Source: a bacterium (GTDB taxonomy: Bacteria; Patescibacteriota; Minisyncoccia; Phycocordibacterales; UBA2100). From it: a DNA stretch of 64,000 nucleotides. Position numbers and translations under genes: made by a program. The stretch is from assembly GCA_030674455.1 (NCBI GenBank), contig JAUSGQ010000020.1, positions 13,461 to 77,460 on the forward strand, read 5' to 3'. Below, in pieces: positions 32,443-63,334 of this stretch. The first letter of the stretch is position 1. Each line of letters begins with the position of its first letter. The notes under the pieces are model-generated. The model ran no database searches. It had not been told where the DNA came from and saw only the letters and a list, made by a program, of their open reading frames with translations.

Positions 32443-32448
32443 ATCGTT

Positions 32449-34965: not shown

Positions 34966-34977
34966 TATACTGGCAAT

Positions 34978-36146: not shown

Positions 36147-36151
36147 CCAAT

Positions 36152-36598
36152 ATGCAATTCCAAGTTCCGCAATTTATAGAGGTTGAAGATAAGATTTTCG
36201 GGCCTCTTACTTTTAAGCAGTTCGTGTATGTCGCGGGCGGGCTTGGCACGTGCTATCTCTTCTGGAAAATTCTGCCTGTGCTCATATCGGTTCCGCTCAT
36301 TGCGGTGACAGCTGCGCTTGCGGCCGTTCTCGCGTTTTTCCAATTCAACGGAAGACCGTTTGTCGCCGCGCTCGAGCACGGCTTCTATTTTCTTTTGCGG
36401 AGCAAACTCTACCTCTGGAGGAATGATGAGAATGGAAGGGAACAGGCGGCAACAAAAAAACAGCTTCTGGACAAACAGGCGCAGGAAAAGGGGAAATCTC
36501 TCGTATATATTCCGAGCCTTTCCAACAGCAAACTGCACGATTTAGCCTGGAGCCTAGATATAAAAGAACAAATCGCCGAGAGCGAGGCGAGTGAATAG
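36152..36598 (+). CDS. PrgI/VirB3-like small conjugal-transfer membrane protein
   Basis: IEVEDKIFGPLTFKQFVYVAGG followed by two TM helices matches the PrgI-family architecture. Immediately upstream of the VirB4 homolog. Confidence 0.5.
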   Translation: MQFQVPQFIEVEDKIFGPLTFKQFVYVAGGLGTCYLFWKILPVLISVPLIAVTAALAAVLAFFQFNGRPFVAALEHGFYFLLRSKLYLWRNDENGREQAATKKQLLDKQAQEKGKSLVYIPSLSNSKLHDLAWSLDIKEQIAESEASE

Positions 36599-36725
36599 GT
36601 GATAGGTTCCACCCAGTAGGTGATTCTGCTAAATCAGGTGCTAGGTACTAGGTTAAAATCAAAACAATGAAACTTCAAGAAATCCATCTCCCTGACACCT
36701 GTAACCTGACACCTATAACCTAATC
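36599..36725. repeat. Empty copy of the GGTG.(T)AGGT ... CCTGACACCTGTAACCT inverted-repeat element
   Basis: GGTGATAGGTTCCACCCAGTAGGTGATT...CTGACACCTGTAACCTGACACCTATAACCT, with no cargo ORF. Confidence 0.45.
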
Positions 36726-36727
36726 CT

Positions 36728-37378
36728 ATGCCCCAATCTCTAGCCAGCAAAAAATCAACGCAGGATTTCGTGCCAGTGCGCGAGGTGCGCGACGGAATTG
36801 TCGTTCTCAAAGACGGCGGCCTGCGCGCGGTACTTCTCGCGTCCTCAATCAACTTCGCTCTCAAATCGGACGACGAACAGACCGCTTTCATAACTCAATT
36901 CCAGAGCTTCCTGAATTCTCTTGATTTTTCCGTACAGATATTCATAGAGTCGCGTATGCTGGACATCCGCCCTTATGTCGCCACGCTCGAGGCTGCGCAC
37001 AAAGAGCAGTTGGACGACCTAATGCGCGTTCAGATACGGGAGTACATCGAGTTCATCAAGAGCTTTACAGAGACCGCCAGCATTATGACGAAGAATTTCT
37101 TCGTGGTAGTGCCGTATTCAACTGGAGGAATAGGTGCGGGACTTTCGGGGCATTCTTCGTTCCTGCCGTGGAAAAGAAAAAAAGGTTCCTCCGAAGAAGA
37201 AAATAAATCGTTCGCAGAACAAGTGTCCCAGCTGGAACAGAGAATCGGGATTGTTCAACAGGGGCTCGTGCGCACCGGCGTCCGCACCGTCCAGCTTGGA
37301 ACGGAAGAGACCATTGAACTTCTCTATAAATTATTTAACCCGGGAGAGGAAGGGAAGCCGATGGTACTTGAAAAGTAA
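36728..37378 (+). CDS. VirB4-like protein, N-terminal fragment (split gene)
   Basis: DFVPVREVRDGIVVLKDGGLRAVLLASSINFALKSDDEQTAFI matches the extreme N-terminus of Gram-positive-type VirB4 proteins (IPY..I.DGI...DG.Y.K...INF.L.S..E). The ORF stops exactly at the boundary of the inserted element. Confidence 0.55.
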   Translation: MPQSLASKKSTQDFVPVREVRDGIVVLKDGGLRAVLLASSINFALKSDDEQTAFITQFQSFLNSLDFSVQIFIESRMLDIRPYVATLEAAHKEQLDDLMRVQIREYIEFIKSFTETASIMTKNFFVVVPYSTGGIGAGLSGHSSFLPWKRKKGSSEEENKSFAEQVSQLEQRIGIVQQGLVRTGVRTVQLGTEETIELLYKLFNPGEEGKPMVLEK

Positions 37379-37850
37379 ATCCGAAATCCGAAGCACGAAA
37401 TCCGAAAAAATCCTAAATCCAAATATGAAAAAAGAAGACCGGAAATATGACTTGGAAGAAAGAAGTTTCTTGTTCGCAAAGAACGTGCGGGCCTTTGTGA
37501 AAAACTTGCCACGTTCCATTACCAGTATAGAAGACACGAAGCAACTTGTGCGGTCATCTGGGTCAATTGGCGCAAATTATATTGAAGCGAACGAGTCGTT
37601 GAGCAAGAAAGATTTTTTGCTACGAATACGCATCGCGCGAAAAGAGGCAAAGGAAAGCAAATATTGGCTACGACTCATAGATACCAATACTGATGGCTTA
37701 GAAAAGCGACGAGCGGAACTAGAACAGGAAGCCACAGAATTGATGATGATTTTAAGTTCGATTATGAGAAAATATGTTTAAAATTTCTTTCTTTTTTGGT
37801 TTTCGGCATTTTTTCGGATTTCGGATTTCGGATTTCGTGCTTACTATATA
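37379..37850. mobile_element. IR-flanked mini-element carrying a second four-helix-bundle gene, inserted in the VirB4 homolog
   Basis: Left AAATCCGAAATCCGAAGCACGAAATCCGAAAAAATCC and right GGCATTTTTTCGGATTTCGGATTTCGGATTTCGTGCTTAC are imperfect inverted repeats. Confidence 0.5.
37425..37781 (+). CDS. Four-helix-bundle protein (PF05635-like), copy 2
   Basis: ERSFLFAKNVRAFVKNLPRSI...RSSGSIGANYIEANESLSKKDFLLRIRIARKEAKESKYWLRL is the same family as 35750-36118. Start taken at MKKEDRKYD. Confidence 0.65.
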   Translation: MKKEDRKYDLEERSFLFAKNVRAFVKNLPRSITSIEDTKQLVRSSGSIGANYIEANESLSKKDFLLRIRIARKEAKESKYWLRLIDTNTDGLEKRRAELEQEATELMMILSSIMRKYV

Positions 37851-37854
37851 GTCT

Positions 37855-39762
37855 ATGTCCCTCCTCGACCTCTTCAGAAGCAAAAAGACAAACGCCGAAC
37901 CGTCGGCGCTTCCCATACTCCCCGAGGAAATTTATTCGGCCGGCGTTTTGGATTTGCAGGATGTCATCGCTCCGCACGCGCTAAAGATAAGCTCGCGCGA
38001 ACTGGACTTGGGCGAGCGCATCGCGCGCACATTTTTTGTTATTTCCTATCCGCGCTTTCTCACCACCGGCTGGTTCGCGCCCATCATCAACATGGACAAA
38101 GTCCTGGACATTTCCATATTCATTCACCCGATGGACACGAGCGAAATGCTCCGAAAATTCCAAAAGAAAGTCGCCGAAGTGCAGAGCCAGATATCCACGC
38201 GCGAGCAAAAGGGAATGGTGCGCGACCCGATGCTCGATACCGCGTATTCCGACCTCGAGGGTCTGCGCGACTCTCTCCAGCAGGCGCAGGAACGCATCTT
38301 TGAGGTCGGCCTGTATCTCACCGTATACGGCAACACCCGTGAGGCGGTAGATAAAATAGAATCCGAGATACGCTCTGTTCTTGAATCGCGCTTAGTCTAC
38401 ATTCGCCCCGCGCTTTTTCAGCAAGAGCAAGGATTCAGGAGCGTCCTTCCGCTCGGCAATGACGAGCTCGATGTTCATACGAAATTGAATTCCGCTCCGC
38501 TCTCCTCTATCTTCCCATTTATCTCATTCGACCTCACTTCAAACCGCGGAATTCTCTACGGCATCAACCGGCATAATTCTTCGCTTATTCTCTTCGACCG
38601 ATTCTCGATGGAGAACTATAACTCGGTCATGTTCGCGAAATCGGGTTCTGGAAAGAGCTACATGACGAAATTGGAAATCCTGCGCTCGCTCATGTTCGAC
38701 ACGGAAGTCATCGTCATAGACCCTGAACGCGAGTATGAATATCTGGCGTCTACCGTGGGCGGCCGGTATTTCAATATTTCACTTTCATCGGAACACCACA
38801 TCAATCCGTTCGATCTTGCTATCCCGCGCGAAGACGAAAATCCTGCGGATATTTTGCGAAGCAACATCATTACTCTCGTCGGACTTTTCCGCATTATGCT
38901 TGGAGGCCTCTCTCCCGAGGAAGACGCTATTATCGACAGGGCGATAACTGAAACGTACGCGCTTAAAGACATTACGGCGGAAGCAAACTTCGCGGCAATT
39001 GAGCCGCCGCTACTCTCCGACTTTGAGCTGGTGCTCTCCGGCATGGAGGGAAGCGAATCGCTCGTACAGCGACTTTCGAAATATACTAAAGGTACGTGGT
39101 CGGGATTTATGAACAGGCCGACGAACGTGGACATGAATAAAAAACTCATCGTATTTTCCGTCCGCGATATGGAAGACGACCTGAAGCCCATCGCGATGTA
39201 CATCATTACGCACCACATATGGAATGTCGTGCGCAAAGAACTTCGCAAGCGCCTACTCGTCATAGACGAGGCGTGGTGGATGATGCGCTCCGCGGACACC
39301 GCCTCATTCCTGTTCTCAATCGCAAAAAGAGGAAGAAAATATTTCCTCGGTATTTCCACGATAACGCAGGACGTTTCGGACTTCTTGAACTCTCCGTACG
39401 GCCTGCCCATGATAACGAACTCGTCCATACAGATTCTTTTGCGGCAATCCCCGACTTCGGTGGACCTCGTCCAGCAGACTTTCAAGCTTTCGGATGAAGA
39501 AAAATATCTTCTGCTCGAGTCGGACGTGGGAGAGGGAATATTTTTCGCCGGACTAAAGCACGTGGCCATCAAAGTCATCGCTTCGTACACGGAAGACCAG
39601 ATAATCACATCCGACCCGTCGCAAATTCTTGCAATCCGCAAGGCAAAACAGGAATTGGCAGATGCAGAGAGCGCCCAGGCTACGTCTGCGATTACAACTG
39701 ACGCCGCTTCCTTCGCCCCGGCTCAGAATACCGCCGCCAGTTCTACAGCCACGCTCAAATGA
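37855..39762 (+). CDS. VirB4-like T4SS ATPase (C-terminal 635 aa including the ATPase domain)
   Basis: IAPHALKISSRELDLGERIARTFFVISYPRFLTTGWFAPIINMDKVLDISIFIHPMD is a VirB4-typical segment. Walker A MFAKSGSGKSYMTK, Walker B RLLVIDEAWWMM. Together with 36728-37378 it would make ~851 aa, a normal VirB4 length. Confidence 0.8.
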   Translation: MSLLDLFRSKKTNAEPSALPILPEEIYSAGVLDLQDVIAPHALKISSRELDLGERIARTFFVISYPRFLTTGWFAPIINMDKVLDISIFIHPMDTSEMLRKFQKKVAEVQSQISTREQKGMVRDPMLDTAYSDLEGLRDSLQQAQERIFEVGLYLTVYGNTREAVDKIESEIRSVLESRLVYIRPALFQQEQGFRSVLPLGNDELDVHTKLNSAPLSSIFPFISFDLTSNRGILYGINRHNSSLILFDRFSMENYNSVMFAKSGSGKSYMTKLEILRSLMFDTEVIVIDPEREYEYLASTVGGRYFNISLSSEHHINPFDLAIPREDENPADILRSNIITLVGLFRIMLGGLSPEEDAIIDRAITETYALKDITAEANFAAIEPPLLSDFELVLSGMEGSESLVQRLSKYTKGTWSGFMNRPTNVDMNKKLIVFSVRDMEDDLKPIAMYIITHHIWNVVRKELRKRLLVIDEAWWMMRSADTASFLFSIAKRGRKYFLGISTITQDVSDFLNSPYGLPMITNSSIQILLRQSPTSVDLVQQTFKLSDEEKYLLLESDVGEGIFFAGLKHVAIKVIASYTEDQIITSDPSQILAIRKAKQELADAESAQATSAITTDAASFAPAQNTAASSTATLK

Positions 39763-40064
39763 ACACAACCCGCATAAGCGTAACGACTGCAATTTTTTTG
39801 GTCGCTATAGCTGTATTAACTGACATAGCTGATTTTCTCTTGGGGATGGGGGCTTTGGGTATTCTTGTAGACATTCCTGCCGCTCTCATATTAGGAATAT
39901 GTTTTTCACACTGCGACGTAAGTTTGATGGATTCCAAACGCGTCGGTAAATTTCTAGCCACCATTGTTGCAGAGGCGACCCCCGTTGTTAACGACTTTCC
40001 TATATGGACTTACACGATCCTTTCCACAATAAAACAAGAGTGGCAAGAACCTCTCGAGATATAA
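39759..40064 (+). CDS. Small two-TM membrane protein (possible pilin/VirB2-like or VirB3-like)
   Basis: 101 aa with two hydrophobic helices. 4-nt overlap with the VirB4 homolog stop. Confidence 0.35.
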   Translation: MNTTRISVTTAIFLVAIAVLTDIADFLLGMGALGILVDIPAALILGICFSHCDVSLMDSKRVGKFLATIVAEATPVVNDFPIWTYTILSTIKQEWQEPLEI

Positions 40065-40071
40065 TTGCCAT

Positions 40072-41106
40072 ATGCAGACAAGAATTTACGTCATTTGTCT
40101 TACGGTCTTCCTTTTTTCTCCAACAACAATTCACGCGCAATTTAATTCCCCAAGCGAATTGGGAAAGATATTTATTTCTCTAACACCGGGGAATCCGGCC
40201 CCCGGCGAAAATGTTCAGCTTTCCGCGACAAGCCCGCTTATCGACCTCGCACGAAGTGACATCATCTGGTATGCGGATAAAAAAGTAATCGCGGAGGGGC
40301 GGGGTCAAATACATGCGGGCGTTACCGCGGGTCCTGCCGGGTCGGAGACTGATATCGTAGTCATCGCACAGTCCGAGAACGCAAGCGCAACCGGAGAAGC
40401 ATTTTTGAGACCGGCCGAAGTTGGACTAATGTGGGAATCCGATTCCTATACACAGCCCTTTTATAGAGGGCGCGCGCTTCCTTCCGCAGGAACAAAGCTC
40501 CGAGTGCAGGCACTCGCGCGGTTGGTCCTTCCAGATGGCAGTTCTGTACCGGAAAATGAAATTACCTACACCTGGAAGCGAAACGGTTCCGTTGTTGGGT
40601 CTGTATCGGGAATCGGCAAGTCTTTTGCGATTTTTCCGTCTCCATCGCTTTTCGGCACTGACATAATTGAGGTGGAGGCGGCTTCTGCGGACGGCACGCG
40701 CGTGGGACACGCAAGCGCGAGAATACCGTCCGTTGAACCCGTGCTTGCTTTGTATGAAGACCACCCTCTCTTTGGAATAATGTACGGAAAAGCACTCGAC
40801 AAACAGATTTCCGCAAAAGACCAGGAAATGACTTTCGCCGCAGTTCCATACTTTGCACAAGCAAGAAGCCCGGATGACGAACAATTCATATACAAGTGGC
40901 GGGTTAATGGGAGAGATATTACTGCTGATTATGCGCGGCCGAGCGAAATTACAATAAACTCAACGGATTCAAGCGGGGAAGCGCTTCTCGCTCTTACTAT
41001 AACTCGCGAACGCAACTGGAACATGAAAGCGAGCGGTGCATGGAATATTTTGTTCCCATCGGGGTCAGGCACGCCCGCAACTGACCCGTTCACATCCGCC
41101 CAATAG
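40072..41106 (+). CDS. Hypothetical secreted protein
   Basis: Signal peptide MQTRIYVICLTVFLFSPTTIHA. 344 aa. Confidence 0.45.
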   Translation: MQTRIYVICLTVFLFSPTTIHAQFNSPSELGKIFISLTPGNPAPGENVQLSATSPLIDLARSDIIWYADKKVIAEGRGQIHAGVTAGPAGSETDIVVIAQSENASATGEAFLRPAEVGLMWESDSYTQPFYRGRALPSAGTKLRVQALARLVLPDGSSVPENEITYTWKRNGSVVGSVSGIGKSFAIFPSPSLFGTDIIEVEAASADGTRVGHASARIPSVEPVLALYEDHPLFGIMYGKALDKQISAKDQEMTFAAVPYFAQARSPDDEQFIYKWRVNGRDITADYARPSEITINSTDSSGEALLALTITRERNWNMKASGAWNILFPSGSGTPATDPFTSAQ

Positions 41107-41118
41107 TCTTTTAATTGT

Positions 41119-41404
41119 ATGCCCAGACACTCACTTTGGCATCGCCTCTTTATGAAAACAATCCTTGTGAGCAAACTTCGAACAATGGGACAAGTTCAGG
41201 TTACATCTAGGTATGCTTCGGCAATAAAGGTTCCTCGCGGCAAGCCGCGAGGAATTAGTGGAACTCGCTTCGCTCGTTCAGTCGCGCAGCAAGCTGCGCG
41301 GTATTCCACCTGTGTTGCGTCTTCGCTCGGACGAAGTGTGAGCAAGCTCCCACTTCGCTCCTCGCTAGCCACAATAAATTATGCCAAAGTTAGTGTACGG
41401 GTAT
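41119..41404. repeat. Long (286-bp) relative of TIR element family 'A' with structured interior
   Basis: Left ATGCCCAGACACTCACTTTGGCAT, and the right end ATGCCAAAGTTAGTGTACGGGTAT is its inverted repeat (20 of 24). The interior holds several GC hairpins (CCTCGCGGCAAGCCGCGAGG; CGCGCAGCAAGCTGCGCG; CGTCTTCGCTCGGACGAAG). The terminal GGGTATG supplies the ATG of the downstream gene. Confidence 0.6.
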
Positions 41405-42713
41405 GATATCCACAAAAACATTTCTTCATTACGCCATAACTATCACGATCATTCTCCTCGTTGGAGGACTCGCCGGATGGTATTACTTTCTCAACAAGCA
41501 AAAGCAGGCAATTTCCACGAGCGACACGGGGCGGGGGTTAGACTCGCCTGCGCCCGCTTTCGGCGGCAGTACGGGGAGCAATTACAGCAACGTCTCCGGA
41601 ACAATCTCCGATGGCACGCCCGTCAATCAGGCCAAAGCACCGCCCCGGATTTGGCAGGTTACAAAAACGCCGGTCGCAGGCATGGGATTTGTTACAAGCA
41701 CTTCTTCAGCCGCAACAACATCAGCTGCGCAATTGTATTTCGTTGAGCGCGCAACCGGATACATCCTAAAAGCCGATACGGAAACCAGCCTGATATCTCG
41801 ACTTACAAACAAACTTTTTGCCCGCACATATGAAGCGTCGTTCAGTTCGGACGGTTCCGTAGTTCTCCGCTCAATCGACGACCGGGGCAATATCACGAGC
41901 TTTGCCGGTGATAATCCTCTGCAAAGTGCAGCGACAGCCTCCACTTCTCCAACGAACTCTAAAGAGCTCGCTGGGGGCCCACTTTCCGGCAAATATTTGG
42001 AGCCCAATATTCGTATGATCGTGCCGATGCAGAAAACACGTGAATTGCTTCTTCTCATACCGAATGCGGGCGGGGGATCAAGCGTGGTTCTATCGTCATG
42101 GAACGGTATTAAACAAAAAACTCTTTTTTCATCGCCTCTTGCTGGATGGAAACTCTTCTCCCTCTCGGATGGGCGGATATTTCTTTCTCTCTTGCCTTCT
42201 GATGATGCGGCAGGCTACGCGTTTGAGTTAAAAAACGGCACCCTGGTACCGCGTTTAAGGAACATCCCCGGGCTGACGTTCCTGCCGCGAACATCGTCGG
42301 ATGCCGTATTATTTGGCGAATCGAGCGGAAGGCTTTCGCTCTTCTCAAGCGCCAAAGAAGGGGCCGAGAGGGTGTATCTTCCGCTTCAAACTGTAGCTGA
42401 TAAGTGCGTATGGGCTCCCTTAAACGCGCCGCTTCGCAGAGCGTCGGGCGAGCGACTCATCGCGTATTGCGCTGTTCCGCAATATGTCGCGTCAAGCAAT
42501 TTTCTTATGGATTGGTACAGGGGAGCTCTGCGCACCTCTGACTCATGGTGGCGCATTGATACTGCTACCGGAGAAGTAACGCCTCTGCTTGAGACCGAGG
42601 AAACTGACAAGGTTTTTGATGTGGAAAATCCGATCATTGACAGCTCGGGAGAGCAAATAGCTTTTATGGACGCGAAAGACAAGTCTCTGTGGCTTCTTCG
42701 CATAACACAATGA
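41403..42713 (+). CDS. Hypothetical membrane-anchored exported protein
   Basis: N-terminal TM ITITIILLVGGLAGWYYFL. 436 aa and Ser/Thr-rich. Confidence 0.45.
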   Translation: MISTKTFLHYAITITIILLVGGLAGWYYFLNKQKQAISTSDTGRGLDSPAPAFGGSTGSNYSNVSGTISDGTPVNQAKAPPRIWQVTKTPVAGMGFVTSTSSAATTSAAQLYFVERATGYILKADTETSLISRLTNKLFARTYEASFSSDGSVVLRSIDDRGNITSFAGDNPLQSAATASTSPTNSKELAGGPLSGKYLEPNIRMIVPMQKTRELLLLIPNAGGGSSVVLSSWNGIKQKTLFSSPLAGWKLFSLSDGRIFLSLLPSDDAAGYAFELKNGTLVPRLRNIPGLTFLPRTSSDAVLFGESSGRLSLFSSAKEGAERVYLPLQTVADKCVWAPLNAPLRRASGERLIAYCAVPQYVASSNFLMDWYRGALRTSDSWWRIDTATGEVTPLLETEETDKVFDVENPIIDSSGEQIAFMDAKDKSLWLLRITQ

Positions 42714-43603
42714 CTATGAATACAAAGAATATCTTGAAACACCTTAAAACGCGCATTTCCAACGTCTTGTACGCTGTCGCGTTCGCACCGCTTGCAGATG
42801 TGGCAAGTTCCCAAAAACTTAGAGCTCTTTATAGTAGCGACGCCGATTTGGTCACTTACCTGAACACGCTATTCAAAGTGGCTATTTCGGTGGGAGCCAT
42901 TATCGCGGTATTGCGCCTCATGTATGCGGGCTACCTCTACATGGCAAGCGACATGTGGACAAGTAAAGAATCTGCGAGAAGTATATTTCGCGACGTCTTT
43001 GTTGGCCTGCTGCTTCTTCTTTCTGTATACATTATTCTCAAGCAGATCAATCCTAACCTCCTGAATTTGGACGCCAAGCTTAGCGAGGTGACAGTGGTTC
43101 TACCGAGCGACACCAGAAGAGATTGGGCGACTGACCCCGCGCTGAGCGCAGCAATGGCTACTGCATTTGGCGACAGTGGCAGAACATGGGAAAGATTACG
43201 AACTGCTGGCATAAGCAGAAACAAAAGCGAATGTACTGCGGCAGCCCCAACCAATTGCACGAGTCTGGGAGGGCTTGGCGAGGGTGCTGTTAACGGCCTT
43301 ATCAACCTAAAATCTGCGTGTACTGAAGCCGCCCGAGCTAGTTGCACAGGTTCCGCATGCAGTTGCGATGTTACTGTAACAGGTGGTACCGAATCATGGC
43401 TTCACAGCCGAGGCACTCAACATCGCCCCGGGAATTCTGTTGTTGATCTGGCTCCTTCAGCAGGTCTAAATACATTCCTTCTCGGATCCGGCGTAGCTCC
43501 TGTAAGCGGCCAGCAGGTTACCAAAAACTTTGCGCGTTACACATACGAAACCACCGGGGACAACGGCGTGTCGACTGGTAATCACTGGCACGTCCAGTAT
43601 TAA
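42689..43603 (+). CDS. Membrane protein with two N-terminal TM helices and a C-terminal Cys-rich domain bearing an M15/VanY-like metallopeptidase motif (possible T4SS pilin-like / cell-wall hydrolase)
   Basis: TM helices VAISVGAIIAVLRLMYAGYLYMA and VFVGLLLLLSVYIIL. C-terminal SRGTQHRPGNSVVDL (H-x7-D) and the terminal GNHWHVQY resemble the Zn ligands of VanY/M15 peptidases. Confidence 0.35.
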   Translation: MASSHNTMTMNTKNILKHLKTRISNVLYAVAFAPLADVASSQKLRALYSSDADLVTYLNTLFKVAISVGAIIAVLRLMYAGYLYMASDMWTSKESARSIFRDVFVGLLLLLSVYIILKQINPNLLNLDAKLSEVTVVLPSDTRRDWATDPALSAAMATAFGDSGRTWERLRTAGISRNKSECTAAAPTNCTSLGGLGEGAVNGLINLKSACTEAARASCTGSACSCDVTVTGGTESWLHSRGTQHRPGNSVVDLAPSAGLNTFLLGSGVAPVSGQQVTKNFARYTYETTGDNGVSTGNHWHVQY

Positions 43604-43612
43604 TTTGCCGCG

Positions 43613-43753
43613 TACCCAGTTAGTACAATTTGGCATAGGTTCTGCCGCGGTCTTCATGCAGGAAAGGGAAGGGAAAAATCGCGTGACTCAAAATCGCCAT
43701 CGTTCGGTAAGAACGGGTGAACCAAAGGCAATGCCAAATTGTCCTACTGGGCG
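43613..43753. repeat. TIR element family 'A' copy 4
   Basis: TACCCAGTTAGTACAATTTGGCAT (43613-43636) and ATGCCAAATTGTCCTACTGGGCGTA (43731-43755). It lies between convergent genes, and its right TIR overlaps the last codons of jag. Confidence 0.75.
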
Positions 43754-44238
43754 TATTTAATTACAACTCTGCGGTTTCTTCCTTCTCCTGCTGATTCTGT
43801 TTTTACGTTCGGCGAATCGGCGAGCACGGTGTGTACTATGAGGCGTTCATACGCATTCATCGGCGTGAGTTCAACATCATACTGAAAAGAGCGCGCCCGT
43901 TCCGCCATCATGAGTGCTTTTGTTTCCAATTCTTTTATCTGTTTTGCCCGGTAGTCGTTAACATCCACCAAAAATTGGAGGTATTCAACGGCTTCTTCGA
44001 CTCCCTCCGCATTTCTGGCGGTCTCGCCTGTCGGAAAAGACTGTTTTTCAGCGATTTTCTTCACGAGATGGTCTATGGCATGCACCGTATCGCCGTGCAT
44101 CCCGATGAACTGGCGTGCATCCTGCATTTGTATCGCAAAAATCGTCTGTCCCGCGATTTGATTTTTTACAACGCCGGAATGAGAGACGCCGAGAGCCTCG
44201 AGCAACTCATTGAGAATCTTTTCAACCTTTTTTTCCAT
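43744..44238 (-). CDS. jag: Jag/KhpB-like RNA-binding protein (KH + R3H domains)
   Basis: The C-terminal R3H-like MNAYERLIVHTVLAD motif and position downstream of yidC match the yidC-jag operon. Start set at MEKKVEKILN. Confidence 0.65.
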   Translation of the reverse strand: MEKKVEKILNELLEALGVSHSGVVKNQIAGQTIFAIQMQDARQFIGMHGDTVHAIDHLVKKIAEKQSFPTGETARNAEGVEEAVEYLQFLVDVNDYRAKQIKELETKALMMAERARSFQYDVELTPMNAYERLIVHTVLADSPNVKTESAGEGRNRRVVIKYAQ

Positions 44239-44266: not shown

Positions 44267-44404
44267 ATCCCAAATCTCAAAGTCCAAATCACAAACAAAC
44301 CTCAATATTCAAACATCTAATATTGAAAACGAATTCTGTTTTGTTTTTTTGAGCTTTAATTGACTGGAGCTTGTTTGGAGCTTGGAATTTGGGATTTGGA
44401 GCTT
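44267..44404. repeat. Intergenic inverted-repeat block, 'TTGGAGCTTG' family, locus 3
   Basis: CCCAAATCTCAAAGTCCAAATCACAAACAAACC ... CTGGAGCTTGTTTGGAGCTTGGAATTTGGGATTTGGAGCTT extends into the yidC 3' end. Confidence 0.5.
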
Positions 44405-45125
44405 ATGTCGTCATTGAACCTTCTGCCCATCAGCAATTCTTGTGCGATCATCGCGGTGTTGCTCGTCACCCAGTAAAGCGCAGCGGCGGAAGGGACTGCA
44501 TAGGCAAATCCGCCTATCATTATCGGCAGTGCGTATCGCATCATCATATCGGCGCTTCTTGCCATGTCCTTAGAGAATGTGCCGTCGGGAGCAACTTTTT
44601 TAGCAGCGCCCATGGAAAGGCGCGTATAGATAATCTGCGTTACTCCCGCGAGAATGGCAAGAACAAAACTTTTGCCGGCCATATTTATAAGCCCGATGAA
44701 TTCCATATTCACTCCGGAAGGGACAGAAATAAAAGCGTACAAGCGTTCGAGATTGATTTCTGGAAGACCGCCCCAGGCAAATATCCAATACAAAGCCAAT
44801 AAAATCGGAAGCTGGATAAATATCAGCCCGAAACTCGCGAATGGATGCACATCATTCTCTTTATAGAGAGCAAACATGGCTTTACCTTGCTGTTCTCTGT
44901 CATTTTTGTATTTTTCTTTCAGCTTTTCCAGCTCCGGCGCAATTTTTTTCATTTTTTGCTGCGTCTCGATGGCGCGCTTGGAGAGAGGGAAGAGGATGAT
45001 GCGCACAATTATCGTCAAGATAATAACGGCAATGCCTACGTCATGAGTAGGAAGAATATCTACGATATAAATAAGCCCGTTATAGAGCGGGTTATATACG
45101 GCGGCATGGAATGCGGATGAAATCA
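44356..45125 (-). CDS. yidC: Membrane protein insertase YidC (short form)
   Basis: Five-TM core with conserved PILLALYWIF and the hydrophilic groove Arg. Start set at MISSAFHAAVYNP (45125), because the longer ORF N-terminus merely translates the TIR element. Confidence 0.85.
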
Positions 45126-45136
45126 TCGGACTAGTA

Positions 45137-45275
45137 TACCCGGTCAGTACAATTTGGCATAGTTTCTGCTGTGGCTCCGTTTGCGCCACACCAGTCTGTC
45201 ACCATCGCGTGATTTATTCGAGTTTATCAAGAATAGCTGTAACCGAGGCAATGCCAAATTGTCCTACCGGGTGTA
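45137..45275. repeat. TIR element family 'A' copy 5 (between rnpA and yidC)
   Basis: TACCCGGTCAGTACAATTTGGCAT (45137-45160) and ATGCCAAATTGTCCTACCGGGTGTA (45251-45275). Confidence 0.8.
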
Positions 45276-45283
45276 CCCATCAA

Positions 45284-45640
45284 CTACAAAGCGCGAGGTT
45301 TTGCGATTGTGCGCGCCACAAGTTGCTCGACATCGTTCTTAATTTCCGCATAGGAGGCGGTATTCGCCAGCCGCATCGCGTAAAATACGAGAATCGCAGG
45401 CGCGGACACGGCGGATAGGCATTGCTTCATCGCCGCGCGCCATCTTCGTTTGATACGATTTCTTGCAACAGCGAGCGCGGCAGTTTTTTTAGAAACTACG
45501 CAACCAGCCTTGATTTCCGCCGTCTTTTGGCCGGCAAATGACCCAAATGACAAAATAAAAAGCGCTCCGCGCTCTCTTTTGAATTTGGCTTTTTCCGCGC
45601 GAACAAAATCCGCGTGCGTCAGTGAATTTTTTCGAGGCAT
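45284..45640 (-). CDS. rnpA: Ribonuclease P protein component
   Basis: LTHADFVRAEKAKFKRERGALFILSF...AVARNRIKRRWRAAM matches the RnpA signature (RNR.KR). Start at MPRKNS with AAGGAAC 5 nt upstream. Confidence 0.85.
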   Translation of the reverse strand: MPRKNSLTHADFVRAEKAKFKRERGALFILSFGSFAGQKTAEIKAGCVVSKKTAALAVARNRIKRRWRAAMKQCLSAVSAPAILVFYAMRLANTASYAEIKNDVEQLVARTIAKPRAL

Positions 45641-45704
45641 AAAGGTTCCTTGAACCCGTATTGGCTCCTCGGCTCGCCGCCCATTCGCCAATCAAACTGA
45701 AAAC

Positions 45705-45839
45705 CTATGTGGACAGTCGGGCGCGTCCCTTTCGGCGGCGGCGTTTCAAAAGCGCGCGCCCGCTCGTCGTGGCGGAACGTTTACGGAACCCGTGAGTCTT
45801 CGAACGCTTTCTCTTTTTCGGCTGATATGTGCGTTTCAT
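45705..45839 (-). CDS. rpmH: 50S ribosomal protein L34
   Basis: The minus-strand translation [44 protein letters not shown] is a canonical L34. Not in the ORF track (44 aa). Confidence 0.9.
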
Positions 45840-46090
45840 AAATGCGTATAGCGTATGGAGTATAGCGTATGGAGGGCGTGAAGGGAAGTAGCAGTGCCAA
45901 TCTACAAATTTATCCCAATCTACAAATGTCTACGAATGACATATACGTCCATTTGTAGTTATTTGTAGTATTCGAATCATTCGTAGATTGGAACATTTCA
46001 TTGTCCCCACGCTATCCACACCTTGTGAACACCCGCGACAAAAAGCGCGGGACTATACCTTCGCGGCGGGACGCGTATAATGACCGGTCT
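45840..46090. other. Putative chromosomal replication origin (oriC)
   Basis: Lies between rpmH and dnaA. Tandem TATAGCGTATGGAG x2 (45848-45875), six 9-mers TCTACAAAT/TCTACGAAT in inverted arrangement (45901-45987) and a DnaA-box-like TATCCACA (46013-46020). Confidence 0.55.
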
Positions 46091-46229
46091 ATGCCCGGTA
46101 GGACAATTTCGAATCGTCTCATATGAATATATTCCTACCGAATCAAAAAAATGCTGGACGAGTAGAGGGGCAATGCCCTTGTGCGATTATTTGCGACCGT
46201 AATAATTCGAAATTGTACTAACCGGGTAT
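46091..46229. repeat. TIR element family 'A' copy 6 (TTCGAA variant) abutting dnaA
   Basis: ATGCCCGGTAGGACAATTTCGAA (46091-46113) and TTCGAAATTGTACTAACCGGGTAT (46206-46229). Internal CATATGAATAT is shared with copy 3. Ends in the annotated dnaA ATG. Confidence 0.8.
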
Positions 46230-47613
46230 GCCTCCTACTTCAATGATGTCCGCTCCCTCGATGACGAATCGGGAACTTTGGCAAAACGCCCTCGTGCAAA
46301 TCGAGCTTGGGACATCCGAGGCAAGTTTTCGCACCTGGTTTCGCAACACAGACATCTCCAGCCGCGACGGAAGCACCGTGCATGTATCCGTTCCGAGCAA
46401 AATCGTTAAGGAATGGCTCGTAGAGAAGCACCACAAGCTCATTTTGAAGGCGCTCCGCACGCTCGATAGCACGATCCGGACCGTCGAATACACCGTCCAC
46501 CGCTCCGCGACACCGCCGGCAGTTGAAAGAAAGCCCGGACGAGCCCCGTCTCCGGAAAACGCGTCGTTCGACCTCCAGTCTCTCTACATCGACAAGCGCG
46601 ACAACCTGAATCCGCGCTACACATTCGAGACATTTGTCGTCGGCCCGTTCAACCAGCTCGCTCACGCGGCAGCAAAAGCCATCCTCGAGCGTCCGGGACA
46701 GATTTACAATCCGCTTTTTATATATGGCTCGACCGGACACGGCAAGACTCACCTCATACAAGCTATCGGCAACTACTTCAAGAAGGCGCATGCCAACAAA
46801 AAAGTGCTGTATGTTACATCTGAGCGCTTCGCGGTCGATTACATCAACGCGGTTCGCGCCGGCCGCGCGAACGGATTCAAAGACCAGTACCGGCAGTATG
46901 ACGTTTTGATAATGGATGACGTCCAATTCATCGCGAATACCGAAAAAACACAGGAGGAACTCTTCCATTTGTTCAACGCGCTCCACGACAACAACAAGCA
47001 GATAGTTTTCTCGTCCGACAAGCACCCGAATTTCCTCCCCGGCTTCGAAGAACGGCTGCGCGGCCGCTTCTCCGCCGGGATGATCGCGGAAATTCCTGAA
47101 CCCGATATTGAGTCTAGAACGGCTATAATCAAGGCTAAAATCGAGCAACATGGATTCAATATTCCCGACGACATAATCCAGTACATCGCCGAGAGCGTAC
47201 GCGGCAACATACGGGAACTTGAGGGCGTCCTTAATATGATCGTCTGCAAATCCCAGCTCAAGGGCAAGGCGGTTTCTCATGCGGACGTGCGGGCGCTGGT
47301 GAAGCACAATATAAAACCGAACAAGGGAGTCTCAATTGAGGAAGTCGTGCGCAGAATTTCCTTGTATTACGAAATCCCGGAAAAAAGTATTTACGAAAAA
47401 ACCCGCAAGAAAGAAGTTGTTAAGCCGCGGCAGATAATCATGTATATGCTTCGTGAAGAATTCAATGTTTCGTATCCGTCGATAGGGGAAAAGCTTGGCG
47501 GACGCGACCATACCACGGTTATTCACTCATGCGAAAAAATAAAACATGAAATAAAGACCAACACGTCGCTAGAGCAAGAGGTCGAGCACATACGCTCTCT
47601 CATTCACTCGTAG
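46228..47613 (+). CDS. dnaA: Chromosomal replication initiator protein DnaA
   Basis: AAA+ Walker A GSTGHGKTHL, Walker B LIMDDVQF, sensor/box VII, and the C-terminal HTH DnaA-box-binding domain (GGRDHTTVIHSCEKI). True start may be an internal Met (MMSAPS / MTNRELW). Confidence 0.95.
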   Translation: MPPTSMMSAPSMTNRELWQNALVQIELGTSEASFRTWFRNTDISSRDGSTVHVSVPSKIVKEWLVEKHHKLILKALRTLDSTIRTVEYTVHRSATPPAVERKPGRAPSPENASFDLQSLYIDKRDNLNPRYTFETFVVGPFNQLAHAAAKAILERPGQIYNPLFIYGSTGHGKTHLIQAIGNYFKKAHANKKVLYVTSERFAVDYINAVRAGRANGFKDQYRQYDVLIMDDVQFIANTEKTQEELFHLFNALHDNNKQIVFSSDKHPNFLPGFEERLRGRFSAGMIAEIPEPDIESRTAIIKAKIEQHGFNIPDDIIQYIAESVRGNIRELEGVLNMIVCKSQLKGKAVSHADVRALVKHNIKPNKGVSIEEVVRRISLYYEIPEKSIYEKTRKKEVVKPRQIIMYMLREEFNVSYPSIGEKLGGRDHTTVIHSCEKIKHEIKTNTSLEQEVEHIRSLIHS

Positions 47614-47827
47614 TGTGTTGATATGGTGTGGAAATCAATCTCACAACATCCGTATAGCCATCGAGAAAAATATAAAATTTAAAATAAAATCTAACAACTC
47701 TAAGCTATCAACATATCTTCAACACTCGAAGAACCTAAAATACCACCCATCTTCATCGTAAAATCATCTTATACACACAATACACAGACATAGTAGTAAT
47801 AGTATTTTATATATATAAAAAGTATTT

Positions 47828-48925
47828 ATGCATCTAACAACTACCAAGGAACAAATTCTTTCAGCATCGGTAATAGCAGAACGGATAGTCGGGAAAAAAG
47901 AATCTCTTCCGATATTATCCTGTATTTTTTTAGATGCCGGTAGCGGTTTATCAGTCCAATCAACCAATTTAGAAGCTGGTGTTGATATAGCGGTTGCCGC
48001 AGAGATTAAGGAGAAGGGGGTAATTGCGATTCCGGCCACAATATTTTCACAAACGATCAAATCCATTAACAGCGACAGAGTTGTGCTGAAAACAGAATCG
48101 GAAAACTTAGTTGTCGAATCACGCGGCGCGAGAACCTTGATAAAGGCGATCCCCCATGAGGAATTTCCAAAACTATCATGGGATAACGGTAAAAAAGGTA
48201 TTGCAGTTCAGCGATTAACGCTCATAAAAGGTATTCAATCAGTCTTGTATTCCGCTTCCCACTCAATGATACGGCCAGAACTTGGAAGTGTTTACATATC
48301 AATAAAAGGAGGGCAGATTACGTTTGCGGCCACGGATTCATTCCGTCTCGCGGAAAGGTCTATAAAAGGACATTCGTCGTCCGAGGAGGGTGAATTTCTC
48401 ATTCCATCGAAGCATGCCGCGGAACTTGTGTATGTTTTGGAACGCGGCGCCAGTGAAAACGTAAAAATACAAGCATCCGACGCACAGCTTGTTGTTGTAG
48501 CGGACGGAACGCGATTCGCCGCGCGCGTTGTCGAGGGAGTATTTCCCAACTACACCGAGATTATTCCAAAGCAATTCACTACAGAGGCGACACTGCTCAA
48601 GAATGACTTTGCGGAGATGTTGCGGAAGGCGCGCGTGTTTTCCGGAAACGACCAGCATGTGGGGCTTCACGTGTATCCAAAAAAGAAAATTTTTTCCGCT
48701 ACTGCGCAGAGCCCAGATGTAGGAGAAACATCAGATTCTATTGATGCGGCCGTATCCGGAGAGGACATAGATATAAATTTCCACATCGGCTATCTTGCGG
48801 ACTGTATTCCGTCGATTGATTCCGACAGCATCACGCTTGGTTTCTCCGGCCCGAGCAAACCACTTGTCATTCGAGGAGCATCCGACATCGGCTTCACGTA
48901 TCTTGTGATGCCACTGAATAGGTGA
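47828..48925 (+). CDS. dnaN: DNA polymerase III beta subunit (sliding clamp)
   Basis: 365 aa with a three-domain clamp pattern, directly downstream of dnaA. Confidence 0.85.
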   Translation: MHLTTTKEQILSASVIAERIVGKKESLPILSCIFLDAGSGLSVQSTNLEAGVDIAVAAEIKEKGVIAIPATIFSQTIKSINSDRVVLKTESENLVVESRGARTLIKAIPHEEFPKLSWDNGKKGIAVQRLTLIKGIQSVLYSASHSMIRPELGSVYISIKGGQITFAATDSFRLAERSIKGHSSSEEGEFLIPSKHAAELVYVLERGASENVKIQASDAQLVVVADGTRFAARVVEGVFPNYTEIIPKQFTTEATLLKNDFAEMLRKARVFSGNDQHVGLHVYPKKKIFSATAQSPDVGETSDSIDAAVSGEDIDINFHIGYLADCIPSIDSDSITLGFSGPSKPLVIRGASDIGFTYLVMPLNR

Positions 48926-49030: not shown

Positions 49031-51468
49031 TCATTGAATCGTAAACGAAACTGTTTGTTCCGCGTTACCGAGAGAGCTTTCTGCAACGGCGCGCAATACT
49101 GCGGGTCCGTGCGTCGTCGGCATAAAAGAAACGGAATACGGAGGCGTTGTGGCGCTTCCTATAAACTGGCCATTCAGGTAGTAAGCGACACGCGATACGC
49201 TTTCGGGACGAGGGTGCATTGAGGAAATAGGAAATGAGGCGAACCCCGAGACACTAATGCCATTTTGCGGGCTCAAAATTACGAATTGACCCGGGGCTCC
49301 CGCGGCTGGAGTTGGCGCGGGCGCAGATGATACCTCCTCTGCAAATGGGGCAGGATTGGCGCTTGCCCACACCTGCACTGGATATTCCCAGCGTGCGAAT
49401 TGCGGGTCGGCGTATGGGTTTGAGGGCGGGCCGGAGCGCGGGTCGCCTTTGTTTATCCAATAGAGGATGTCGTGTATGCCCTGCGCGGGATTGCTGTTCC
49501 AGCTTCCCCGCAAAACCGGCGGCAAAGAATCAAGGTCTGTGTCGGGAGAAGGAGGTGGAAACTCCACAGACTGATATTTAGTGAGAGCGTATGCAAAAAC
49601 TTCATGCCACATGGGCGCAACGATAAATGCCGCTATCTTTTTTACCATCGGACTATTGTCATTGTTGCCGGCCCACGCGCCCATCGCAATTCCGGGCGTG
49701 TAGCCGATTATCCATGCGTCATGGAAATCATTCGTGGTGCCTGTTTTATCTGCTACCTGGAACCCTGGGAAGTAGAGGGGAGAGTTGGCGCCGAATTCCG
49801 GAGTCCGCGCGACGTTGTCGGAGAGGATATCGTTCATCTGGCGCGCGATTTGGCTGTCGATGACGCGCACGCTCTGTTCCGCATAACTCTCGAGGATGTT
49901 TCCCGCGCTGTCCTTTACTGTAAGTATCGGCGTCGGCGGATTGCGCACGCCGTCATTGGCGAATACGCCGTATGCGCCTGTCATCTCAAGAAGGCTTACC
50001 TCGCCGCCTCCCAATACGAGCGTTAATCCGTACTGGTCTTTGTCTCCCAGCGTTGTAATTCCCATGTCGCTTGCTGTTTTTAGGGAATCTGTTATTCCCG
50101 CGAGATAGAGAGTTTTAATTGACGGTACGTTTATTGATTGCGCAAGAGCATTGCGCAGCGTTATCGGCCCGCGGAACTTTTCGTCGTAGTTACCCGGCGA
50201 GTAGCAGGGAGCCTGGTTGTTCGTATAATCAGCCGGCTGGCAGAAGGTCGAGAACTGTGTCTGCAGGTCAAACACCACGGTGTCCGGCGTGTAGCCCTTT
50301 TTAAATGCGGTCGCGTATACAAACGGCTTGAAGGATGATCCCGGTTGGCGATTGGCGAGAGTGACATTCACCATACCGTCGATATTTGGGTCAAAATACC
50401 CGCGCGAGCCAACCATGGCGAGGATTTGTCCGGACTTCGGCTCTACCGCGACGAGACCCGCGTTCGAGGCATTGAAATTCTTTTCATTTTGAAGAGCGGT
50501 TTTGGAAACAACCTCTTCAGCTTTCTTTTGCAGGTCATAATCGAGCGTTGTTATGACCTGAAGACCGCCGCTTGCAACGGCATCAGCCCCGTACTTTTCT
50601 TCCAAGTATTCACGCACATAAAATACGAAATGGGGAGCCTTGATGCCTGCCTCTGCTTCATCCCTGAACGCTACCGTTTCATTTCTGGCACTCTCATATT
50701 CCGCGTCATCAATAAATCCGTTCTCTTTCATTTTTAGAAGCACGAGATTTTTCCGGCCTTCCAATTCGTCGCGGTGTCTGCCGTACGGAGAATAGCGCGT
50801 CGGAGCCTGGGGGAGCGCCGCCAGGTATGCGGCCTGCGCGAGGTCCACATCTTTCGCGTCGATGCCGAAGAAATATTGGCTCGCTTCCTCTACCCCATAA
50901 ATAGTCCCGCCGTACGAAGTTTCATTCAGATAGATATAGAGAATCTCATCTTTAGAATAAATGCGCTCAAGCCGTATTGCGAGAATGATTTCTTTCAGCT
51001 TGCGAATGATGGTTTTGTCCCGCGTAAGAAGCGCATTTTTTACGACTTGTTGCGTGATGGTGGAGCCGCCCTGCACGAAACCGCCGGAAAAGATATTTAC
51101 GAGCATGGCGCGCGCAAACGAAAGCGGGCGGAAACCGAAATGCTGGTAAAATGTGGCATCTTCGATGGCAATAGAGGCGTTCCTGATATTTACCGAGATG
51201 GCATCAAAGGGAACCGTGGTGCGGCGCATCGCGCCATGCACGTCGTAGAGGAGTATGTTTCCTGTACGGTCGTATATTTTTGTGGATTCATCCACTCTGC
51301 GGTTCTGAAAATTCTCCAGCGAGGGAATTGAGACAACGGCGCCCCACGCGGCCACGATGCCGACGATGAGCATGCTTAGGATAAAAATTGCCGCAAGCGA
51401 CATTTTGATTGCCTGAAAGAGATTGGCGCGTGAAAAATCTTTGCCGTAGCGGTTATATTTTGAGGACA
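49031..51468 (-). CDS. Penicillin-binding protein 1A (bifunctional glycosyltransferase/transpeptidase)
   Basis: GT51 motifs (EDATFYQHFGF, GGSTITQQVVKN, RKLKE) and transpeptidase SSFKPF, SIN and KTGTT, with an extra C-terminal domain. Start set at MSSKYNRYG (51468), because the upstream ORF extension translates the TIR element. Confidence 0.9.
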
Positions 51469-51482
51469 TGTTGGGTGGATTG

Positions 51483-51622
51483 TACCCGGTTAGCATACTT
51501 TGGCATAGTTTCTGCCGTCCTTCACCGCGCCTTCGTCTAAAAATCTTCTCCCGGTGCAATTCGAACGATTATATGTATAAAATCACAACCGAGGCGATGC
51601 CAAAGTGTTCTACCGGGTGTAC
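51483..51622. repeat. TIR element family 'A' copy 7
   Basis: TACCCGGTTAGCATACTTTGGCAT (51483-51506) and ATGCCAAAGTGTTCTACCGGGTGTA (51598-51622). Internal AGTTTCTGCCG and ACAACCGAGGCGATGCC are conserved. Confidence 0.8.
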
Positions 51623-55480: not shown

Positions 55481-55871
55481 CATTGTCTCCTCGTTAGGGT
55501 CAAACCTCCTTATACGCCATGCCTCTAATGCGGTCAATCAAAGCGAAAACATTACTCGCTCATAGTTATACACACCTATATCCACACCATATCCACGATT
55601 TTTTGGCTTTTTGCTCATTACGGATTCATAACGATTACTTTATAATCTTTCTTATCGATGTGCTTAACCGTGCGTCGGTCGCTTTCCAAGGAGGTTCGCA
55701 GAAATGCAAATCACACCGGATAGCAGTTCCTTGAATCTATAGATACGAAAGTATCTAAACATTGCAGGAACAGTTCGGCGAGAGGAGTGGGGTGGAATGC
55801 AGATGTGCGGGGAGATCGTATCAAGTTGCACGGAACATTCAATCGGTTCGTAACCGCCGAAGAAAAGCAAA

Positions 55872-55899
55872 AGACCTCCGCAAGAGAGGTCTTTTGTTT
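55872..55899 (+). terminator. Orphan rho-independent terminator in gene-poor region
   Basis: AGACCTC-cgcaa-GAGAGGTCTTTTGTTTG. No convincing ORF upstream. Confidence 0.5.
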
Positions 55900-56086
55900 G
55901 CCCAAGTGAGACAAGACTCTTCACATTCTCGGTCTCACAAGGTTAACCGTGCGTATGTACCCGTATAGTACACGCCATTTGCGCGCAAGATGTTCTTATC
56001 CACACATTTTGAATTCGGATAATTTTCTGTTTCAGAATTTTAAATCGAAAAAACAAAAAGGCCTGGTCCCTCGACAGGCCTTTCGG

Positions 56087-63321: not shown

Positions 63322-63334
63322 CGTATGGAGTAAG

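Follow-up and report, generated by a model that had tools for sequence, protein, structure and literature searches.

A dnaA-linked candidate replication origin with a BUS-like trinucleotide array in a Candidatus Kaiserbacteria genome

The dnaA locus and the dnaA–dnaN spacer

We analysed a 64,000-nucleotide stretch of contig JAUSGQ010000020.1 (hereafter the window), centring on the genes around dnaA and on the spacer between dnaA and dnaN as a candidate origin of replication. Taken jointly with the rest of our preferred explanation, the window probably contains the dnaA-linked chromosomal origin region of a Candidatus Kaiserbacteria genome (Patescibacteria, or candidate phyla radiation, CPR). 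Pfam matches identify jag, with its R3H domain (43744–44238), yidC (60KD_IMP, 44356–45126), rnpA (Ribonuclease_P, 45284–45640) and rpmH (Ribosomal_L34, 45705–45839) on the minus strand, and dnaA (46228–47613, also matching Bacillus subtilis DnaA 8btg with E 1e-106) and dnaN (47828–48925) on the plus strand. A gene for a class A penicillin-binding protein (49031–51559, minus strand) and polA (60820–63321) were assigned in the same way. The rpmH-rnpA-yidC-jag / dnaA-dnaN synteny of the original prediction is thus confirmed and its coordinates hold, the sequence features otherwise needing small corrections, and synteny and gene identities also support its reading of the locus as a dnaA-linked origin region. 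By synteny and box content, the locus is an ordinary dnaA-linked origin. Three of its features stand out: a module resembling the basal unwinding system (BUS) of other bacteria with its trinucleotide motif on the opposite strand, an initiator without the adenine-reading asparagine, and a miniature inverted-repeat transposable element (MITE) on the dnaA start codon.

Our comparative set consists of 80 loci (L001–L080) collected by a DnaA protein scan with one genome per species, all from metagenome-assembled genomes (MAGs) of Candidatus Kaiserbacteria or Paceibacteria, with DnaA identities of 62–97%. At the upper end, L001 has a DnaA that is 97% identical to that of the window and DNA that is only 74–82% identical, and it therefore represents a different species. 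About 78 of the 80 relatives share the gene order jag-yidC-rnpA-rpmH / dnaA-dnaN with the window. The best 120 of 8000 DnaA matches are all at least 82% identical and do not sample distant CPR DnaAs, so they do not set the phylogenetic range of the array described below.

The dnaA–dnaN spacer is 214 nt long with a GC content of 28.5%, compared to 49.6% for the window; the spacers of the relatives are conserved in length (median 223 nt) and average 37% GC. The AT-rich spacer with a one-mismatch DnaA box that had been predicted here is therefore present, the box being TTATACACA at 47769. In total, the spacer holds four boxes with at most two mismatches, against a background of 2.7 per kb, while the family consensus has six, and an alignment of 75 loci places perfect consensus TGTGGATAA and TTATCCACA boxes at fixed positions. 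The window versions are two reverse boxes at 47616–47635 (minus strand; top strand TGTTGATAT and TGTGGAAAT, family TGTGGATAAC..GTGnATAAC), two middle boxes at 47705–47724 (plus strand; CTATCAACA and TCTTCAACA, family TTnTCCACA) and two abutting, co-oriented boxes at 47769–47786 (plus strand; TTATACACA at 47769 and CAATACACA at 47778, family ACTTATCCACA-nTATCCACA). After the last pair come a 4-nt spacer (GACA, between 47786 and 47791) and, on the box strand, a DnaA-trio-like array of trinucleotides, TAG TAG TAA TAG TAT (TAGTAGTAATAGTAT, 47791–47805). The array is followed by an AT-rich tract, TTTATATATATAAAAAGTATTT (47806–47827), which runs up to the dnaN ATG with only one G and no C and is the putative unwinding element. 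Across 75 spacers, this 3′ module has the family form ACTTATCCACA-nTATCCACA-CCAC-TAATAGTAGTAATAGT-TTTATATAnAAAA, the last part being the consensus of the AT tract, and then the dnaN ATG.

The trinucleotide array is a consistent property of this position. At least three consecutive TAR triplets are found here in 70 of the 80 loci, with a family array size of (TAR)4–6. The window contains a single run of (TAR)≥4, and 64 of the 65 such runs in 948 kb of sequence from relatives occupy the same position and strand. A constant 4 nt separates the array from the boxes, whereas anything from 1 to 35 nt lies between it and the dnaN ATG. In a clade of three loci (L037, L038 and L059, DnaA 93–94% identical), (TAR)5 is replaced by (CAR)5, CAACAACAGCAACAG; this array, CAA CAA CAG CAA CAG, keeps the A and R of the top strand and has G at the centre of every lower-strand triplet. 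We rejected the array as coding sequence after reading it by eye: the dnaN frame is closed by a TAA 9 nt before the ATG, and the array's own frame contains TAA and TAG stops.

GC skew also changes sign across the locus in most relatives. In the 3.5 kb to the left of jag, the mean skew is −0.051 (negative in 50 of 53 loci), and in the 3.5 kb to the right of dnaN it is +0.038 (positive in 46 of 53). Paired by locus, the right-hand value is the higher one in 50 of the 53 relatives (Wilcoxon p = 6e-10). The conserved gene blocks themselves have a skew of only ±0.015, too little for the switch to be an effect of gene orientation alone. The window agrees with its relatives in sign and has a noisy local cumulative minimum at 47–48 kb. 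Because of the skew switch in the relatives and the conserved module, we consider it likely that the dnaA–dnaN spacer is the best origin candidate. It had originally been described as a possible DNA unwinding element or second origin module; the first part of this description agrees with the module observed, while the comparative evidence would make it the main module rather than a second one.

Comparison with the basal unwinding system

In published descriptions, the BUS includes a single DnaA box or a co-oriented pair, a short spacer rich in GC and an AT-rich region (PMC8287927, PMC10721633, PMC6669920). A box with at most two mismatches is expected 0–16 bp from the first trio, ideally in tandem with a second box of the same orientation at most 3 bp away (PMC8287927). 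In the window, the one-mismatch box TTATACACA abuts CAATACACA and the pair ends 4 nt before the array, an arrangement that is conserved in the family; the spacer provides a box cluster beside dnaA, and an AT-rich region, 47806–47827, follows the trinucleotides. More than three NAN triplets, where at least three are expected, lie on the strand complementary to 5′-TTATCCACA-3′, the lower strand reading 3′-TAT CAT CAT TAT CAT AAA-5′; in the L037/L038/L059 clade this pattern is lost to the central G. The family form of the lower strand, 3′-GAT TAT CAT CAT TAT CAT-5′, likewise keeps the central A and the 5′ T. The trio consensus 3′-[G/A]AT-5′ is not matched on this strand: the first position, which in B. 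subtilis is the guanine that is captured, is C or T in trios 2–6 of 70 of 70 regex-detected, end-anchored arrays. The canonical motif is instead on the other strand: the top strand of the array is a perfect canonical trio run (3′-RAT-5′) on the wrong side of the boxes. Reverse-oriented boxes downstream of the array, which would make it canonical, were not found, with at most 7 of 75 loci having one in any 10-nt bin.

When compared to the B. subtilis-type bipartite oriC with a BUS (Richardson 2016/2019, Pelliciari 2021/2023), the Kaiserbacteria locus is alike in having the module between dnaA and dnaN and a box cluster upstream of dnaA. B. subtilis boxes 6 and 7 have the same geometry of two abutting, co-oriented boxes (ACTTATCCACAAATCCACA, versus the Kaiserbacteria consensus ACTTATCCACAnTATCCACA), and both systems have a 4–5-nt C-rich spacer, at least five trinucleotides with an invariant A, and an AT tract before dnaN. 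The top strands of the published scaffolds are 5′-ACTTATCCACAAATCCACAGGCCC followed by TACTATTACTTCTACTA for B. subtilis and 5′-ACTTATCCACCAATCCACAGCACC followed by TACTACTATTACTA for Staphylococcus aureus. The Kaiserbacteria consensus is near-identical to both scaffolds through the boxes and the spacer (PMC8287927, PMC6669920). The sequences part after the spacer, where Kaiserbacteria have TAA TAG TAG TAA TAG and the Firmicutes have (C)TA CTA TTA CTA. The top-strand triplets are thus TAR (TAA/TAG) in Kaiserbacteria and TAY (CTA/TTA) in B. subtilis, and the trios of the bound strand would be 3′-YAT-5′ rather than the canonical 3′-[G/A]AT-5′. A published table of BUS predictions includes one similar array, that of Pseudoalteromonas haloplanktis (CATCATCATTATCATTAT, with a 13-nt spacer), and 3′-YAT-5′ therefore has one precedent in that table.

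The initiator also departs from that of B. subtilis, in which Asn187 contacts the adenine amino group and is essential, while Arg202 contacts guanine. In an alignment to 8btg, the Asn187 position is V, I, M or T in essentially all 81 Kaiserbacteria DnaAs, and the Arg202 position is Lys in 81 of 81; the initiator-specific motif (ISM) encoded in the window has V at N187 (V203 in window numbering) and K at R202 (K218). Glu228 and Ile190 are unchanged, as is the recognition helix of domain IV, with GGRDHTTVIH present in the window protein. The DnaAs of the (CAR) clade carry four further ISM changes (A186T, V187T, Y189F and I190L, B. subtilis numbering). This coincidence of array and ISM changes suggests that the array is read by the ISM of DnaA, a suggestion that rests on a single evolutionary event and leaves the bound strand undefined.

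From these comparisons, we tentatively raise the possibility, to which we give less than even weight, that Kaiserbacteria and perhaps other CPR use a strand-swapped BUS, with 3′-RAT-5′ trios on the strand of 5′-TTATCCACA-3′. Two mechanisms would fit: DnaA could load on the other strand, or in an arrangement unlike that at the origins studied so far, or 3′-YA-5′ could be captured by a remodelled pocket (Asn187 to Val/Ile, Arg202 to Lys).

The rpmH–dnaA spacer and its inserted elements

The rpmH–dnaA spacer is 388 bp long, and the 250 bp originally given for it is approximately its length without an inserted MITE. It contains a trio of direct DnaA boxes with 11-bp phasing on the plus strand (46001–46031), TTGTCCCCA cg CTATCCACA cc TTGTGAACA, which is kept in 76 loci with the consensus yTATCCCCA-NN-yTATCCACA-NN-TTrTrAACA when these are anchored on box matches. 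The single consensus-like box predicted here, CTATCCACA at 46012–46020, is indeed one mismatch from consensus and proves to be the best of three. Boxes with at most two mismatches occur at 12–19 per kb in both spacers, compared to 2.7 per kb in the window. The claim of unusual 9-mers in place of a classical DnaA-box array is thus not upheld, as family-conserved boxes of the classical type occupy both spacers; only the two best copies had been recognised because the boxes of this genome are degenerate.

Downstream of the trio, TATAAT at 46076–46081 (plus strand) corresponds to the −10 element of a family-conserved dnaA promoter. In the family, GCGCGTATAAT lies about 45 nt downstream of the boxes and is followed after 7–9 nt by CTATG, the ATG of which is the first in-frame dnaA start in the window and the closest relatives. 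The boxes at 46001–46031 would belong to a DnaA-controlled promoter module comprising the box trio and TATAAT, and the trio may also serve as the upstream half of the origin. In Escherichia coli, a DnaA box between dnaAp1 and dnaAp2 mediates autoregulation. The two systems are alike in having DnaA boxes directly upstream of a dnaA promoter that diverges from rpmH; they differ in that Kaiserbacteria have three direct boxes phased at 11 bp, some 45 nt ahead of the −10 element, and in that the window reuses the module at a second locus, 55566–55646. There, TTATACACA at 55566, ATATCCACA at 55578 and ATATCCACG at 55589 precede TATAAT at 55641. This arrangement of three phased boxes and then TATAAT is identical in kind to the dnaA promoter module, and its recurrence therefore suggests a reusable DnaA-controlled promoter unit. 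Downstream of the second TATAAT lie about 230 nt without an open reading frame (ORF), a terminator-like hairpin at 55872–55900 and a perfect TTATCCACA at 55996, all within a non-coding, AT-rich stretch of about 1 kb. The region 55566–56004, which has no Rfam match, might encode a small RNA under DnaA control or serve to titrate DnaA. Over the whole window, 9-mers within one mismatch of TTATCCACA number 24 against 10.3 expected, a count reached in 0 of 100 shuffles. The sequence TTATCGACA occurs five times in the window.

Between the rpmH promoter and the box trio, the window contains an inverted array of CTACRAAT units, with three forward copies at 45902, 45920 and 45930 and three reverse copies at 45951, 45961 and 45979 (spacings 18,10 / 10,18). 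Within the array are a palindromic ATTCGAAT at 45970 and, in the left arm, a DnaA-box-like 9-mer, TTATCCCAA (45910–45918, plus strand), which is identical in L001, scores 9.4 bits with the family box matrix and ranks at the 99.97th percentile of window 9-mers. Six repeats in inverted triplets had been predicted as copies of a 9-mer; the six units and their symmetry (45902–45986) stand as an 8-mer, and only four copies match the 9-mer TCTACRAAT. The 8-mer has seven copies in 64 kb where about 3.6 are expected, and six within 85 nt are therefore far beyond chance. A scan for the repeat had been proposed as a check; in the 64 kb it leaves only one copy outside the array, and this rules out a dispersed repeat. 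We observe this array only in the window and its sister species L001. Other loci fill this slot differently: with CTACNNG heptads that extend directly into DnaA box 1 in L002, L081 and L048, with CTAGNNN heptads in L037 and L054, where one arm adjoins the start of rpmH, and with its own rpmH promoter repeats in inverted form in L004; many loci have just 45–60 nt between rpmH and the boxes. The CTACRAAT units would thus constitute a fast-evolving, lineage-specific inverted array that most likely binds another protein or forms a cruciform.

It is somewhat unlikely that the palindrome works through structure, as a DNA cruciform or RNA hairpin, rather than through protein sites. The array does fold into an imperfect hairpin of about 40 bp (DNA −15.6 kcal/mol, z −4.7; RNA z −3.4), L002 forms a 26-bp hairpin from different units, and 15 relatives have in this slot an element with a three-way junction and with compensatory changes at 40 of its 42 pairs. 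The units of the right arm are, however, changed in L001 without compensating changes in the left arm, which is identical at 35 of 35 positions, and selection on sequence therefore fits better than selection on pairing. Furthermore, L001 folds poorly (z −1.7), and the arms of L048, L037 and L054 are 50–60 nt apart and poorly complementary. A covariance model of the relatives' element has no match in the window, and we therefore also rejected the palindrome as a copy of that element.

This element of the relatives, about 108 nt long and previously undescribed, occurs in the rpmH–dnaA spacer of L010 (5749–5857), L003 (5800–5908) and L017 (5307–5415), with further copies in L042 (8699–8808, minus strand), L070 (8670–8778, minus strand), L027 (9174–9278, minus strand) and L079 (12850–12960). 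Its outer stem of 20–25 bp differs wholly in sequence between species while retaining complementarity; inside it are a conserved hairpin, CUC-GCA-GGCC-GACG-GGCC-GA-GAG, and a second hairpin with a covarying stem and an AGCA loop. The covariance model detects the element in 19 of 81 sources, 15 of them between the rpmH promoter and the box trio, and it matches no Rfam family. More generally, no Rfam family reaches its gathering score in the window and 10 relatives, where the E-value mode returns weak generic hairpin matches only, and tRNA and tmRNA scans of the window and the relatives gave nothing meaningful.

A tandem 14-mer in this spacer, predicted to recur in inverted form after polA, was recovered as such: TATAGCGTATGGAG lies at 45847–45874, where the minus strand reads CTCCATACGCTATA twice and ends 7 nt before the rpmH ATG, and again at 63317–63330 (plus strand) and 63383–63396 (minus strand). 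It has five matches in the window at up to two mismatches, compared to 0.17 expected. The pair at 63317–63396 flanks a GC-rich hairpin, AAGGCCTC...GAGGCCTT; its first copy overlaps the polA stop codon and forms the outer hairpin arm, while the copy at 63383 points at an ATG at 63408. Of the five window copies of the core, ATACGCTATA, four point at an ATG 7–21 nt downstream (rpmH twice, 28618 and 63408, the distance being 11 nt for each of the latter two). The motif lies close to the promoters of genes that are apparently almost leaderless; it is no origin element, and nothing about it is specific to the origin. At 28470–28560 and 63331–63378, strong GC-rich hairpins at gene ends are followed by a ACGCTATAC-type motif and the next ATG, forming compact terminator–promoter junctions with essentially no 5′ leader.

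Two elements with terminal inverted repeats (TIRs) had been predicted, one between rnpA and yidC and one directly against dnaA. Both are real insertions, as shown by empty orthologous sites in relatives, and they belong to a larger set, with three members in the gene cluster and seven over the window as a whole. These elements are MITEs: the seven copies are 131–137 nt long with ends CCCGGTnAGTACAATnTGGCAT and ATGCCAnATTGTCCTACCGGG, variable interiors that fold as long hairpins and no ORF, and 43 further copies were found in metagenomes, all of them complete TIR pairs 130–136 nt apart and mostly with CATA duplications. The empty sites define 4-bp target-site duplications (TSDs), namely TATG at dnaA, TGTA at 51485 and CGTA at 43615, each present once in L001 or L002, and perfect 4-bp TSDs flank four of the seven window copies. 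One MITE (43615–43751, 137 nt, plus strand, TSD CGTA) has its empty site in L002 as GCCGCGTA joined to TTTAATC. The stop codon of jag (TAG, 43744–43746) lies inside its right terminal repeat, and the insertion has therefore reshaped the Jag C-terminus; L005 has the same insertion with the same CCCAG end variant. A second (45139–45271, 133 nt, plus strand, flanks TATA/TGTA) lies between rnpA and yidC, and the orthologous site in L001 is without a copy.

The third MITE is on the dnaA start (46094–46226, 133 nt, inverted on the minus strand, TSD TATG at 46090–46093 and 46227–46230), with empty versions in L001, L002 and L081 reading TATAATGACCGGTCTATG joined to CA. It was inserted in the TATG that includes the start codon, and the duplication regenerated the ATG at 46228. 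TATAAT is thereby left 146 nt upstream, an orphan ATG at 46091 opens a 10-codon ORF, and the element itself folds as a hairpin with z −4.2. Among the 43 complete TIR pairs, we found no autonomous insertion sequence with the same ends (all 130–136 nt), and a non-exhaustive scan of 18 window ORFs, about a third of those of at least 100 aa, gave no match to transposase families.

Correia elements of Neisseria and ERIC are known bacterial MITEs. The Kaiserbacteria elements resemble them in length (about 130 nt), in having TIRs of about 25 bp that fold as a long hairpin, in lacking an ORF and producing a short TSD, and in being present as many intergenic copies, some beside gene starts, with presence/absence polymorphism between relatives. 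They differ in their TIR CCCGGTnAGTACAATnTGGCAT, in a 4-bp TSD of the form YRTR, mostly CATA, and in combining a very variable interior with a constant length of 130–137 nt, a uniformity that holds across the window and metagenome contigs L083–L126. The target preference, CATA/YRTR and often inside CATATG or CATACG, resembles the promoter and start-codon context of the lineage. Variants of the TIR change on both arms together (TTTGGCAT, TGTGGCAT, TGTGGCGT and TTTCGAAT).

The origin assignment, its alternatives and its meaning

From its architecture and conservation, we infer that oriC corresponds to the AT-rich dnaA–dnaN spacer. DnaA would bind about six boxes there, and the pair at 47769–47786 would nucleate a DnaA oligomer onto the adjacent trinucleotides at 47791–47805. 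The oligomer on the array would then open the AT tract just before dnaN, as in the B. subtilis BUS.

Several observations weigh against this assignment. The strand of the array is opposite to that of every experimentally tested BUS, and the B. subtilis origin is inactivated when its boxes are turned around with respect to the trios (PMC6669920). The boxes of the window are degenerate, with one per spacer having at most one mismatch, and a better box cluster lies at 55566–56004. As to the predicted GC-skew switch near 46 kb, the relatives show the sign change, but the window, which covers 64 kb only, is ambiguous by itself: it has the local minimum, and its overall cumulative minimum is at 17 kb and not at 47 kb. 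To the left of the locus, 78% of coding bases are on the plus strand, head-on to a fork leaving the origin. The genes of an 18.6-kb stretch that borders the origin cluster on its left (24953–43603) are all on the plus strand and head-on to the presumed leftward fork; this stretch includes a weak match to a type IV secretion system pilin at 42689–43603. Finally, the array sits where the −35 element of a dnaN promoter could lie.

The last point leads to an alternative in which the box pair, the (TAR)n array and the AT tract are a DnaA-regulated dnaN promoter or operator, with the origin elsewhere, either at 55.5–56.0 kb or outside the window. In a lineage that seems nearly leaderless, an array 22–37 nt ahead of the dnaN start codon overlaps the zone where a −35 element is expected, and the box trio with TATAAT acts as a promoter module at two other places. 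The non-canonical array strand, the head-on genes of the left flank and the better consensus boxes of the AT-rich, non-coding 1-kb stretch at 55566–56004 would fit this alternative as well. On the other hand, a fixed distance to the boxes combined with a variable distance to the dnaN start is the opposite of how a −35 element behaves, and the strict 3-nt periodicity with invariant A and R across DnaAs of 62–97% identity is the signature of DnaA-trios. The skew changes sign here in 50 of 53 relatives, and the stretch at 55.5 kb has no (TAR) run. The two roles are also not exclusive, as incC of B. subtilis likewise contains the dnaN promoter. We consider a promoter in place of an origin to be distinctly unlikely.

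It is highly improbable that the CTACRAAT/TCTACRAAT repeats are instead the initiator sites of this lineage, as variant DnaA boxes or iterons, with the rpmH–dnaA spacer as the origin. Six symmetric copies lie within 85 nt beside dnaA, the identity of the left arm in L001, where flanks are only 74–82% identical, suggests selection on sequence, and variant boxes exist elsewhere, such as the 12-mer of Thermotoga maritima (PMC6669920); however, DnaA has a canonical recognition helix in domain IV and the consensus box of the family is TTATCCACA, the repeats are shared with L001 alone while L002, L081, L048, L037 and L054 bear different units, and the slot holds the structured hairpin element in 15 loci and nothing in many others. 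With a matrix built from 234 family boxes, the best alignment of CTACRAAT (CAATCTACA) scores 3.5 bits, a level reached by about 0.6% of all window 9-mers, compared to 7.5–13.8 bits for the conserved boxes of the window, and we rejected the repeats as DnaA boxes on this basis.

With the dnaA–dnaN spacer as the favoured origin, the locus bears on how bacterial origins open. The BUS has been proposed as the ancestral, universal opening mode of bacterial origins, and our full-text literature searches returned no description of oriC architecture for CPR/Patescibacteria. A large uncultured lineage that keeps the whole BUS layout, with the motif on the other strand and the adenine-reading residue lost, is a test case for this universal model. 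If the array works, it would either broaden the BUS model to allow flexibility in the bases captured or reveal another geometry of loading. If the ISM does read the array, the (CAR) clade, whose array has C in place of all five T's and whose ISM has four substitutions, would be a natural experiment in the co-evolution of an initiator and its single-stranded DNA motif. The MITE exactly on the start codon of a near-leaderless dnaA represents an unusual natural disturbance of initiator expression. The conserved module, in turn, would offer a simple sequence marker for oriC in Kaiserbacteria MAGs.

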